Notes under the pieces: model-generated
Database searches by the model: none
Seen by the model: the letters and a program-made list of their open reading frames with translations, nothing else
Told to the model about the DNA's origin: nothing
Program-made: the position numbers and the translations under genes
In this document: piece after piece, positions 7,205 to 43,856 of the stretch
Position numbering within the stretch: the first letter of the stretch is position 1
Layout: every line of letters begins with the position of its first letter
Assembly: GCA_965214095.1 (NCBI GenBank)
Contig: OZ243938.1
Location: forward strand, 2,240,001 to 2,304,000
DNA: 64,000 nucleotides
Direction: 5' to 3'
Origin: Candidatus Poribacteria bacterium
GTDB lineage: Bacteria > Poribacteria > WGA-4E > WGA-3G

Positions 7205-8380
7205 TCACCTTATAGGTGACTCCACAAGGTTTAAGCCTGTGTGACGTAGGTGCCAGTTGAATTTGACACTTAGGGGGGATGCCATAACCCCGACTACAGA
7301 GTCTTTCAACTCTGATACTTTTCTATAGATGTTGATAGCACCAACACCATCTCTATGATACTTGAAACCACACGGACATTTATACTCACGTGTTGTCGGT
7401 TTCTTTCTATTGCCACACTTTGGACAGGTTTGTGATGTGTATGCTTCAGATACAGACTTCACATGTATTCCTGCCATTTCTGCTTTGTAGGTTATCATGT
7501 GTGTGATACGTGCGAAAGTCCATTGATGCACTTTCTGATTAGACTTTTTACTAAACTTCATATTCTCACGGATGCCTTTTAAGTCTCCTATCACAATCGT
7601 ATCTGCCTTCGCCTCTATGCAGTCAGATATAAACTTTGTTGTGATTTTATGTTCAGCATCTTTGAGTTGTGCATTCAGTTTGTCTAATGTTTTACGTTTC
7701 GCTTTTTTTAGTCTATACCAACGTCTTGAACGCCTTTTACAACGTTCTATCTCTTGTTGAAACACACCTTTTATCTTATTCTTATATCTCTGTATAGAAC
7801 GGATAAATCTACCATTATAGATAGTTGTCCGCTTGCCATCAAATGAAACTATTGGGTGTATCTCTCCCATATCAACTGATACTGTAATACCTGTATCTTG
7901 TTTCTGTGGTGTGTCTACTTGATAAACTAAAGCAAAGTAATATGCACCACGCTTAAAACACATCTCTACATACTTCGGTTTCTTATGAATGCCTTCAAGG
8001 ATAATAGGTGCATTCCCTTTGCCATTAGACAATATCAGTTTATTGTCCTTAATTCTAATAGCACCAGACTTCCAATGCACTTTGAAATGCTTTGGTGTCC
8101 GTTTCGGCGGTTTTGCTTCAGGGTTAGATTTCCTGACTTCAAAAAAACTCTTGAGACTATCAAAATAACTATCCGCACACGCTTGGACAGATTGACTATG
8201 TAATGCATAATCTCTATGACGCATGTATTTATGGACTGTGTTTTTAGACAACCATATACCTTTTTTCTTATGCGTTTTCCTAACAAGTGATACCACTTTA
8301 GAATAGCAACTCCCAGATGCACGTGCTAATAAATCTAATTGTTCAGTCCGTTTATGTTTCAATGTTTGTGTGAGATACAT
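7205..8380 (-). CDS. tnpB: RNA-guided endonuclease TnpB
   Basis: RuvC-I VSVDMG, IVIGDL, YKAE.AGI, SEAYTSQTCPKCG..CPCG zinc finger, RuvC-III HRDGVGAINI. Confidence 0.93.
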   Translation of the reverse strand: MYLTQTLKHKRTEQLDLLARASGSCYSKVVSLVRKTHKKKGIWLSKNTVHKYMRHRDYALHSQSVQACADSYFDSLKSFFEVRKSNPEAKPPKRTPKHFKVHWKSGAIRIKDNKLILSNGKGNAPIILEGIHKKPKYVEMCFKRGAYYFALVYQVDTPQKQDTGITVSVDMGEIHPIVSFDGKRTTIYNGRFIRSIQRYKNKIKGVFQQEIERCKRRSRRWYRLKKAKRKTLDKLNAQLKDAEHKITTKFISDCIEAKADTIVIGDLKGIRENMKFSKKSNQKVHQWTFARITHMITYKAEMAGIHVKSVSEAYTSQTCPKCGNRKKPTTREYKCPCGFKYHRDGVGAINIYRKVSELKDSVVGVMASPLSVKFNWHLRHTGLNLVESPIR

Positions 8381-41622: not shown

Positions 41623-42624
41623 CTACAACAAGAGTTCTTCTGCAATTTGGATTGCATTTAAAGCTGCACCCTTACGAAGATTATCGGCAACAACCCACAT
41701 ATTTAATCCGTTTGAAATGGATATGTCTTCACGAATACGTCCAACATATACATCATCTTTCCCAGCAGCTTCTATCGCCATGGGATACTTGTAGTTGTCC
41801 GGATCATCTATCAGCTGCACACCAGGAGCATCTGCAAGACATTTATGTGCTTCAGCAGGAGTAAGTTTTTCATGGGTCTCAAGGTTAATTGACTCTGAAT
41901 GTGCAAAGAAAACTGGCACACGTACAGTAGTTGCTGAAACACCGATAGTATCATCAGAAAGGATTTTATGGGTTTCATTGACCATCTTGAGTTCTTCTTC
42001 GTTATCACCGGTGTCAGTAAAGGGCCAATCAAAAGCGACATTAAATGCCATCTGATGCGGAAAACGATCAAGAGTGATAGGTTTGCCTTCTAACGCTTCG
42101 GTTGTTTGTAGAATCAATTCATTCACTGCCTGACCACTCTTACCGGAAACACTTTGATAAGTAGAAACAACAATTCGTTTGATTCCAACAGCATCATATA
42201 TCGGTTTGAGTGCGACCATCATCTGTATGGTTGAACAATTTGGATTAGCAATAAGTCCGTTATGTTTGTGTGCAGCATCCATATTGACTTCAGGCACAAC
42301 TAAAGGCGTGTTATCATCCATACGGAAAGCACTCGTATTATCAATAACCAATGCCCCTTTATCAACTGCTGTTGGCATGAATTCTCGACTGACTGATGCC
42401 CCCGCCGAAGAAAAGACAAGGTCAACATCATCAAACGAGTCGTGAGTCAATTCTTCTATGACGATGTGTGCCCCTTTAAAAGTTAAGATTTCACCTGCAG
42501 ATCTGTGAGATGCCAGCAGTTTCAGACTCCCAACAGGAAAAGCGCGTTCTTCTAAAAGCCCCAACATAGTGTTGCCAACTGCCCCTGTTGCCCCGACAAT
42601 CGCAACACGATAACTCTCATTCAT
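41623..42624 (-). CDS. asd: Aspartate-semialdehyde dehydrogenase
   Basis: VGATGAVG, IDNTSAFRM, ANPNCSTIQ, STYQSVSG, RVPV..AHS, DNLRKGAALNA. Confidence 0.96.
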   Translation of the reverse strand: MNESYRVAIVGATGAVGNTMLGLLEERAFPVGSLKLLASHRSAGEILTFKGAHIVIEELTHDSFDDVDLVFSSAGASVSREFMPTAVDKGALVIDNTSAFRMDDNTPLVVPEVNMDAAHKHNGLIANPNCSTIQMMVALKPIYDAVGIKRIVVSTYQSVSGKSGQAVNELILQTTEALEGKPITLDRFPHQMAFNVAFDWPFTDTGDNEEELKMVNETHKILSDDTIGVSATTVRVPVFFAHSESINLETHEKLTPAEAHKCLADAPGVQLIDDPDNYKYPMAIEAAGKDDVYVGRIREDISISNGLNMWVVADNLRKGAALNAIQIAEELLL

Positions 42625-42868
42625 CTTATTTTACCTCAAAGTCTATCTTTTCTAATTATATAATAATGTTACCACAAAGTTAAGACTTAAGCAAACCTGT
42701 TTTACAACACGCATTGGTGTGATATAAGCGAGTTTCGCTAAATATTGATAAATCATACAAAAATTAACATTAAAAACCCTATTTATGTAGATAAATACTA
42801 TATTGAAGCAACCTGAATAGTAACCAAATTTGCTAAACATCGTTATTAGTAGTAAGCAAATGGGATTC

Positions 42869-42897
42869 CTGCGTTATTTAGCGTGGAAAACTATAAT
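42869..42897 (+). promoter_or_regulatory. Putative promoter firing into the structured intergenic element
   Basis: CTGCGT-17 nt-TATAAT; good -10, weak -35. Confidence 0.4.
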
Positions 42898-42903
42898 GTT
42901 AAG

Positions 42904-43347
42904 TTGTTTTGAAGTGAATTAACTAACAATCCCACTGCTTTCGCTGTGGGTCTAACCACATAAACTCGTACGGGAGTATTTTAAGTCATTTGAGAAAAGC
43001 AAGGCTCTATAGTGTAAGTCGAACCGAAGTCCACACTACGCAGATAGTCAACTGGCACCGTATCTATGGGAAGTGTGCAGATAGTAAAACTTGGCGGATC
43101 CCCAGAGGGACAAGTTGCGGTAGACATCATCGCCCGAGACGCTATCTTATCAAAGAGATTTAAGATGCGACGTGCGAATCACTCTTTAACCTCGCGGTAG
43201 GGTATACCGAGAGACTAAACGCCTGTGGAGTCCAAGTTAGACCTCATGCAGTTCAGGAAGGAGGCACGAGAGATGGAAGCAGGAATCACGCTGGTTGTGT
43301 GTTAAAGAGGGAAACGACTTTAGTCGTCGTGAGTATCACACATCCAG
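42904..43347 (+). ncRNA. ORF-less structured RNA / IS200-IS605 derivative ending in a TnpB omega-RNA-like scaffold
   Basis: Series of hairpins 42931-43169, then CTCGCGGTA..TACCGAGAG, ACGCCTGTGGAG, GAAGCAGGAA, ACGAC-TTTA-GTCGT hairpin and GAGTATCAC, as at IS605 right ends; no tnpB ORF. Confidence 0.6.
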
Positions 43348-43354
43348 TTGTACC

Positions 43355-43383
43355 TTGACAATGTTGGGGAAATATAGTATCCT
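43355..43383 (+). promoter_or_regulatory. Sigma-70 promoter for hup
   Basis: TTGACA-17 nt-TATCCT. Confidence 0.65.
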
Positions 43384-43571
43384 ATAGATAGAAACTATTT
43401 TATTTCAAGAAGAACTTAAGACATTCTATATAATTTTGTTGCAAGTTGGGTAGTTTCTATCAAATTTAACTTTTCAGTCAGATGCAATGTAATCATCTTA
43501 TGTAAATTCAAAACTTATATGTGATTATTGTTTGACTGTATATATATTCTTTATCAAAAGGAAGTTGAATC

Positions 43572-43856
43572 ATGGCTAAGAAATTGATGAAAGACGACAT
43601 CATCAACAGTGTCGCTGACAAAGCAGAACTTACCAAGAAAGATGCCGCCGCTGCTGTTGAAGCGTTTACAGCAACTGTTCAAGACGCTTTGGAGAAAGGC
43701 AATTCAATTGGACTCATTGGTTTTGGTACGTTTGAAGTCAGAACCCGTGCTGCTAGAGAAGGTCGCAATCCGCAAACCGGTGCACCTCTCAAAATACCTA
43801 AGAAAAAGGTTCCGGCATTCAAAGCTGGTAAGAAACTTAAAGACGCTGTCTCCTAA
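43572..43856 (+). CDS. hup: DNA-binding protein HU
   Basis: [22 protein letters not shown]...VP.FK.GK.LKDAV. Confidence 0.96.

Follow-up and report, generated by a model that had tools for sequence, protein, structure and literature searches.

A gene-less, probably mobile IS200/IS605-family element with a putative structured RNA domain between the asd and HU genes of a Candidatus Poribacteria bacterium

What occupies the spacer that separates a semialdehyde dehydrogenase gene (asd) from the gene of an HU-type protein in this Candidatus Poribacteria bacterium? A reading made from the sequence alone, over the 64,000-nt stretch of DNA that we refer to as the window, had seen there a large, highly structured RNA ending in a module similar to the omega RNAs of TnpB, with an insertion that pairs with its own would-be guide, and had offered as explanations a domesticated or trans-acting guide RNA, an IStron-like element or a new large non-coding RNA. 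Our analysis indicates that the region very probably derives from an IS200/IS605-family insertion sequence that carries only tnpB, as a non-autonomous element without protein genes (a PATE, or "standalone omega-RNA" element). The parent insertion sequence is common in this Candidatus Poribacteria genus.

The asd-HU insertion and its copies in relatives

The main features of the locus are the following.

41623-42624, minus strand: semialdehyde dehydrogenase gene (asd)
42910-42913, plus strand: TGAA target or transposon-adjacent motif, host sequence outside the element
42914-43339, plus strand: ORF-less IS200/IS605-family element of 426 nt, delimited by the empty sites of two sister species (G021 and G001) and by the full-length alignment of the copies in relatives
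43340-43355, plus strand: would-be guide, host flank older than the insertion, with the same letters at both empty sites
43572-43856, plus strand: HU-type protein gene

The spacer does lie between the semialdehyde dehydrogenase and HU-type genes, and contains an island richer in G+C (0.42-0.53) than the DNA around it (0.24-0.33). The earlier statement that it has no credible ORF was correct: the element region contains no ORF of at least 60 aa, the longest reaching 57 aa on the plus strand and 49 aa on the minus strand, and its short frames are broken by indels between copies.

The orthologous spacer of one sister species (G021) is empty, the equivalent of window position 42913 joining that of 43340 so that ...ttttgaa is followed directly by acatccag..., and a second sister species (G001) has a precise empty site that agrees with the first. 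These two sites set the limits of the element at 42914-43339 and indicate that the flank that would act as guide is older than the insertion. The comparison also places the insertion 3' of TGAA, with target duplication absent. Each of the 16 aligned mini copies (the gene-less elements of this kind) with a left end has this motif directly before it, as do all 7 full tnpB elements that were checked. In runs X5 and X6, contigs of ~98% identity span the same asd-HU insertion, which close strains therefore share. Among the data examined it is common only to these near-identical strains. With G021 and G001 empty, retention at one orthologous locus across species, as expected of a TldR-like guide, is not found; the locus has had no long-term retention. 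The domesticated, locus-specific guide proposed from the sequence is contradicted by these empty sites, together with the mobile multi-copy family to which the element belongs.

This family is widespread in the genus. When 41 genomes (its own and those of relatives) were searched with the element, 20 matched, all of them within the genus: matches were found in 19 of the 24 other genomes of the genus and in none of the 16 from three other families. The search for other copies that the sequence-only reading had proposed revealed the full-length unit of 430-480 nt elsewhere in the genus, in four genomes: 6 copies in G003, 8 in G020, 2 in G050 and 1 in G013. The mini copies sit in different flanks, amounting to 24 distinct insertions in relatives, and those of G003 are near-identical to one another, as are those of G020. 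(Copies without recognisable ends, L113, L114, L041, L063 and L105, were omitted from the flank analyses.) Its own genome has one full mini copy and one 5' fragment only, the latter at L006 ~1501-1612 (C1 1741270-1741381, minus strand), 83% identical, which comprises the left end and ~80 nt of the adjoining interior. The signs of mobility come from the copies in relatives. In metagenome contigs an exact 19-mer scan gave 0 matches, and a scan with a degenerate pattern gave 17 loci, among which there was one true copy (L163, 100 bits). Matches in Gemmatimonadota and Arthrobacter records spanned 22-23 nt and were set aside as chance.

The relation of the insertions to host genes bears on the suggestion that this is an IStron-like element that splices itself out of host transcripts. 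At 23 of the 24 mini insertions the nearest downstream ORF of at least 100 aa is co-oriented with the element; in the one remaining case (L011) a LysM/M23 gene in the same orientation follows after 37 nt. One copy lies in frame within truD (L135 792-2369, in G020); the two halves match Pfam TruD 17-195 and 245-411, and joined by precise excision they would be read in a single frame. PATEs with IStron ends are described in part of the 2023 preprint of Zedaveinyte et al. All of this would suit an IStron, but the truD case is the only intragenic insertion of the 24, and the full tnpB elements are equally co-oriented with the next downstream gene (8 of 8), so that co-orientation is a family property and gives no clue to the function of the interior; a special insertion pattern was accordingly rejected as a hint to that function. 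Furthermore, group I introns have a U before the 5' splice site and a G as last intron base, whereas here the 5' flank ends in ...TGAA and the element in ...TCAC, and searches up to E 10 of the window and of eight divergent copies gave no match to a group I intron or another ribozyme. This option fails on these three points (intron match, boundary bases, intragenic share), and we consider that the element is almost certainly not an IStron. Co-orientation may reflect single-strand target choice or selection.

Two further observations concern the insertions. Elements are often found 0-40 nt from the downstream open frame, in which case the guide covers the ribosome-binding region. In G020 one mini element (L105 2473-4201) is interrupted by ~1.37 kb near the equivalent of window 42980-42983; the interruption has the size of a full tnpB element and may be a nested insertion.

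Kinship with tnpB-only insertion sequences

The protein-less derivative that we favour shares both of its ends with insertion sequences that do encode TnpB. The relevant features are these.

42931-42950, plus strand: left-end subterminal hairpin CCCAC-N10-GTGGG, with compensatory variants and likeness to tnpB elements
42956-42993, plus strand: remnant of the insertion-sequence promoter region, from alignment to the full element L083
43189-43339, plus strand: right end, an omega-RNA scaffold with 77-87% identity to the right ends behind TnpB genes
43191-43213, plus strand: scaffold helix CTCGCGGTA/TACCGAGAG, covarying
43222-26 with 43279-83, plus strand: scaffold helix CCTGT/GCAGG, covarying
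43240-45 with 43261-65, plus strand: scaffold helix GACCTC/GAGGC, covarying
43314-43332, plus strand: right-end subterminal hairpin ACGAC-TTTA-GTCGT, then CGTGA, covarying

Behind 358-aa TnpB genes, in its own genome as well as in relatives, there is a right end with which the 3' 150 nt of the element are homologous (77-87%). This agrees with the earlier proposal of an omega-RNA-like right end lacking a tnpB gene in cis. The left end, from 42914 to ~42993, resembles that of tnpB-only elements of 1364-1379 nt, with up to 92% identity over 40 nt and a weaker likeness as far as ~42993, and the right end (43189-43339) is 77-82% identical to theirs. All 7 full elements of this size that were checked begin with GGGAATTA... 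directly after TGAA and finish in ...GAGTATCAC, a terminus common to the window element and the tnpB-only insertion sequences of the same genus. In its own genome the last 95-125 nt recur 7 times and the first 112 nt once; two of the right-end copies follow intact 358-aa ORFs, two follow broken tnpB genes and the remainder are orphans.

The hairpins vary in a compensatory manner. The CCCAC/GTGGG stem recognised in the sequence-only reading is the left-end hairpin, for which the copies have variants such as CCCAAGTC..GACTTCGGG and CCCAATGC..TTTTGGG, and the right-end hairpin alternates among GAC/GTC, GGC/GCC, GCC/GGC and GGA/TCT. In the scaffold helix CTCGCGGTA/TACCGAGAG 8 of 9 pairs hold among 27 distinct copies, and relative to the tnpB-linked copies it shows the compensatory version CCGTC/GACGG. 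As in an omega RNA, the 3' end is at the element boundary GAGTATCAC, with the flank as putative guide. Four traits of a PATE are present in the element: a fixed motif without duplication, shared hairpins at both ends, no genes and several copies in relatives.

In loci of a second genus, g13 (L116/L099 and others), the same interior and scaffold are followed by a simpler right terminus, CCCAC..TTTAG..GTGGGAGTGTCAA, which has no GTGTG...GCACAC block. The RNA core is therefore common to elements with two kinds of right-end hairpin.

Candidate partners in trans are encoded nearby. The 358-aa TnpB carries the Pfam domains OrfB_IS605, Cas12f1-like_TNB and HTH, TnpB of the same family shows the motifs GIDVGI, GIETL and DRDINAA, and the genome's TnpB matches the solved TnpB 8bf8 with an E value of 3.8e-47. 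G000 has two intact TnpB genes of the element's family, and there are 27-28 matches each in G003, G020 and G050. Genes for Y1 TnpA (Y1_Tnp) are present in G000, and the sole lead to a cognate TnpA is a partial tnpA of G020 that has a sequence resembling the left end next to it. Four tnpA(Y1)-tnpB pairs are found on contig C1 (80511-81976, 2168924-2170389, 2384494-2385962 and 4230081-4231549); their TnpB is of another family, with ~30% identity to that of the element, and these pairs are possible sources of transposase in trans. Elsewhere in the window, at 7328-7975 (C1 2247328-2247975, minus strand), a weak TnpB match (29% identity, E 1.6e-9, residues 141-352) may represent a TnpB remnant or a distant member of the family.

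As for transcription, the TATAAT that had been noticed upstream is there, at 42892-42897, in host sequence 17 nt before the element. The full tnpB element of G003 has, directly after the left-end hairpin (L083 1390-1419), a perfect TTGACA-18-TATAAT promoter (12/12) with a TG extension. At these promoter positions the mini copies hold ACTCGT and TATTTG or CATTTG, and a scan for sigma-70-like promoters found none in the mini copy L091 and none on the plus strand of the window element. One metatranscriptome (run X9) has a contig of 151 nt, with a depth of 3, that covers 43046-43160 at ~92% likeness, and also pieces of other elements. This weakly suggests that an RNA library contains a related copy; such a contig indicates presence, not expression. 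No sequence of run X21 (guessed to be RNA, with the same species label) was placed on the window.

The interior and the right terminus of the window copy

Between the shared ends, from ~42994 to 43188, the element has no likeness to tnpB, yet this interior is conserved and covarying on the plus strand. The following parts are predicted.

42989-43154, plus strand: structured and conserved RNA domain ("module") with TTTGA/TCAAA as its closing stem, from RNAalifold and pair counts
42999-43001 with 43076-78, plus strand: module helix GCA/TGC
43007-12 with 43064-69, plus strand: module helix CTATAG/CTATGG, from covariation
43035-39 with 43044-48, plus strand: module helix ACTAC/ATAGT, from covariation
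43099-102 with 43107-10, plus strand: module helix TCCC/GGGA
43117-21 with 43129-33, plus strand: module helix GCGGT/ATCGC

Window 42956-43188 showed no likeness to tnpB loci by blastn; against 14 tnpB loci nhmmer --max returned a single 20-nt match (E 9.5), and the covariance model of the interior, run on tnpB loci with filters off, gave at best 8.1 bits (E 0.42) at scattered positions. A decayed tnpB pseudogene was rejected as the origin of the interior (best tblastn match with TnpB, E 0.16). In Rfam the whole window gave two tRNAs only at the gathering score; at E <= 10, nothing relevant was found in 42600-43600, where the only match was a chance one to MIR444, or in eight divergent copies, with the IS605-orfB motifs, HEARO and group I introns included.

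The evidence for structure comes from the comparison of copies. RNAalifold predicts 62 pairs over 27 distinct copies, 17 of them with compensatory changes, and in these copies 98.2% of the cells of the module are paired. Changes on both sides were found in 18 pairs, against 9.9 +/- 1.7 in shuffles (0 of 500 shuffles as high), and the covariation score of the module is 0.236, against 0.128 shuffled and at most 0.082 with partners slid, figures that are inflated by having the consensus structure and the pair counts come from one alignment and by the relatedness of the copies. Ten interior pairs are mostly G-U on the plus strand (10 to 26 sequences per pair), which points to an RNA that shares its strand with the omega RNA. 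The module is always followed by the scaffold, also in the divergent copies of G024 and G147, which score 81 bits (with one hairpin missing) and 40 bits against the covariance model.

Some of the stems read from the single sequence fare well in this comparison. GCGGT/ATCGC is paired in 100% of the cells of the 27 distinct copies, and AACTTG/CAAGTT in 93%, although the latter has zero compensatory changes. ATCTTA/TAAGAT is paired in 81-88% but is absent in the second genus. TAGTGT/ACACTA is unsupported (76% paired, no compensation), covariation favouring CTATAG/CTATGG and ACTAC/ATAGT in its place. As for the region being "highly structured", the folding energy is no better than that of shuffles (MFE z = -0.75 on the plus strand and -0.53 on the minus strand), so that only covariation speaks for structure. 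The suggestion of a large structured RNA foreign to Rfam agrees with this covariation and with the Rfam searches.

The interior is found beyond the genus of the window. BLAST matches appeared in 17 of 176 genomes of the phylum; 13 were strong, 5 in genus g1 and 8 in the 65 genomes of genus g13, and the other 4 covered only 25-48 nt. A covariance model of 162 positions had matches in 15 of 151 genomes. These 15 belong without exception to family f1, and the 51 genomes from eight other families had none. In these searches the domain was found in two genera of one Poribacteria family.

One may ask whether the interior is functionless filler, an old product of deletion or recombination whose conservation comes from recent spread alone. 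The near-identity of the copies inside G003 and inside G020 and the result of the promoter scan would agree with this, and divergence from the orthologous copy of X5 is no lower within the element (3/226 and 4/141 nt) than outside it (3/208 and 7/361 nt). However, copies of the two genera are 28-31% apart and have kept the helices by changes on both sides (18 pairs), the unpaired junctions GAACCGAAGTCCACA and ACTGGCACCGT are nearly invariant where the helices vary, and the divergent copies still reach the covariance-model scores given above. We therefore regard filler as unlikely.

Another possibility is that the conserved hairpins act in single-stranded DNA, in the "peel and paste" transposition by TnpA, rather than in RNA. 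IS200/IS605 elements move as single strands, using DNA hairpins at their ends, and both the left-end and the right-end hairpins covary here. On the other hand, many interior pairs are G-U (G-T), weaker in DNA, the full tnpB elements transpose without this interior, and the module is fused to an RNA scaffold of the same strand; for the interior a role in DNA seems very unlikely. The interior thus appears to be a conserved structured RNA domain, undescribed in Rfam and fused to the omega-RNA scaffold, and in the protein-less derivative such a domain of ~165-195 nt stands in the place of tnpB and its promoter.

The right terminus is where the window copy departs from its family.

43291-43313, plus strand: family-conserved linker and GTGTG..AAAGAAGCACAC block, degenerate here, from the alignment of 36 right-end termini

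These are the 23 nt that had been taken for an insertion specific to this locus, splitting the terminal hairpin. That claim is refuted by the alignment, since a homologous segment is present in all 35 other distinct right ends; the same segment thus occurs in other copies whatever their flank, which the sequence-only reading had itself named as grounds against its proposal. The block AAAGAAGCACAC (or AAAAAAGCACAC) is found in 34 of the 35 other termini and AAAGAAGTACAC in the remaining one, and the longer linker of A-AGG type in 35 of 35. The window reads AAAGAGGGAAAC where the family has AAAGAAGCACAC and its linker is shortened, being the sole copy of the 36 without the invariant block and the long linker; by these two differences its scaffold is not intact. 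At 43309 and 43311 the orthologous copy of X5 has A and C, respectively, and so is closer to the family consensus. Given also the similar divergence inside and outside the element, we read the window copy as a fixed copy that is probably decaying neutrally, with the flank pairing as a by-product.

That pairing was the basis for proposing a self-sequestered or domesticated guide RNA, in which 43291-43309 would pair with 43337-47 and with 43182-90, silencing the guide or acting in trans on the HU promoter. The two complementarities are real: CTGGTTGTGTG pairs with CACACATCCAG at 10 of 11 positions, and CTCTTTAAC (43301-09) with GTTAAAGAG (43182-90) at 9 of 9. The former is the highest among 38 distinct pairs of right end and flank (the window alone has 10, with 9 in 4 copies, 8 in 19, 7 in 13 and 6 in 1), only 22 of 3000 random TGAA-adjacent genome flanks reach at least 10/11 (empirical P ~0.007), and the latter is the best of 27 copies with complete data, the 26 others having 2-7 of 9. 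Besides, the would-be guide does abut the TTGACA at 43355 of a promoter-like site, as had been stated. Against this proposal, the flank is identical at the empty sites; 6 of the 11 flank pairs draw on the family-invariant TGTGTG and the terminal CAC; and the 37 other copies, each compared with its own flank, have at most 9/11, so that the segment does not co-vary with the 3' flank. The changes in the segment destroy precisely the block that is invariant in 34 of 35 other termini, and a perfect 9-mer complement within 426 nt is expected ~0.35 times by chance (arithmetic). We consider a sequestered guide highly improbable, and in a copy that is decaying, chance is the likeliest origin of the pairing between segment and flank, as far as sequence comparison can tell; the P of ~0.007 and the window-specific changes that also complete the 9/9 pairing speak against it, and chance is likely, short of proof.

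For CTCTTTAAC/GTTAAAGAG, in a comparison that leaves out the G003-type copies (175-nt extraction), the tnpB-linked copies have 2-5 of 9 (chance level) and two mini copies of G050 have 7/9; this pairing could be a pseudoknot specific to mini elements, or chance. No TGAA-adjacent match to the would-be guide, with up to 3 mismatches, was found elsewhere in the genome.

A possible mode of action and comparison with known systems

If the protein-less derivative works as such elements are described to do, a Y1 TnpA would have mobilised it in trans, read-through from host promoters would probably transcribe its RNA, and TnpB from full elements would load this RNA, also in trans. The loaded RNA might then guide the cutting of the empty site, TGAA followed by ACATCCAG..., and the 5' domain could benefit the RNA of the element itself, for instance by stabilising it, aiding its processing or helping it to compete for TnpB. 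Going further, the mini elements could be, beyond deletion relics, a lineage that has replaced tnpB by a selected 5' RNA domain of ~165 nt fused to the scaffold, which may aid the making, the stability or the preferential TnpB loading of the RNA, or be a ribozyme or sensor that controls guide availability; we put this forward as a tentative proposal that may well prove wrong.

The interior would in any case mean that a folded RNA domain, rather than tnpB debris, is kept in two genera of uncultivated sponge symbionts. Should it help a gene-less element to obtain or use the TnpB of others, it would add a new layer of competition among RNA-guided transposons and, if true, provide a natural accessory module for the engineering of omega RNAs. 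The asd-HU locus itself would be a decaying insertion before the HU gene and not a domesticated regulator.

Among known systems, the closest by descent are the tnpB-only (IS1341-type) insertion sequences of the genus (L083, with 1364 nt, and L002 and L003 in its own genome), with which the window element has in common TGAA, both hairpins, the ...GAGTATCAC terminus and the 150-nt scaffold at 77-87% identity. They differ by their perfect TTGACA-18-TATAAT and their 358-aa TnpB, neither of which is found in the mini element. The TnpB-omega RNA complex of ISDra2 (PDB 8bf8, 8exa) is similar in having a homologous TnpB (E 3.8e-47), a right-end RNA and a 3' guide, a likeness that refers to the protein sequence of TnpB and to the position of the RNA. 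IStrons, which combine a group I intron with IS605 or IS607, likewise have a structured RNA that follows the left end and precedes the omega RNA, and protein-less derivatives of them are known from the part of the literature cited above; the window element differs in its boundary nucleotides, which do not suit such an intron, and in the lack of any group I intron signature.

A literature search found no paper joining "Poribacteria" with "TnpB". Protein-less elements of this kind are already in print: in part of their text, Meers et al. (2023; PMC10055086) state that gene-less PATE-like IS200/IS605 elements "often encode" omega RNAs used in trans, and part of Altae-Tran et al. (2023, PNAS; PMC10691335) reports mobilised standalone omega RNAs that exist and work in trans. 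As far as those parts of the two papers describe them, PATEs and standalone omega RNAs resemble the window element in sharing their ends with tnpB elements of the same genome, in being ORF-less and multi-copy, in carrying at their right end an omega-RNA scaffold whose putative guide is the flank, and in their need for TnpA and TnpB in trans, which for the window element we infer. What the window family adds to them, by the same partial descriptions, is a covarying RNA domain of ~165-195 nt, with no counterpart in the parent insertion sequence or in Rfam, placed before the scaffold.
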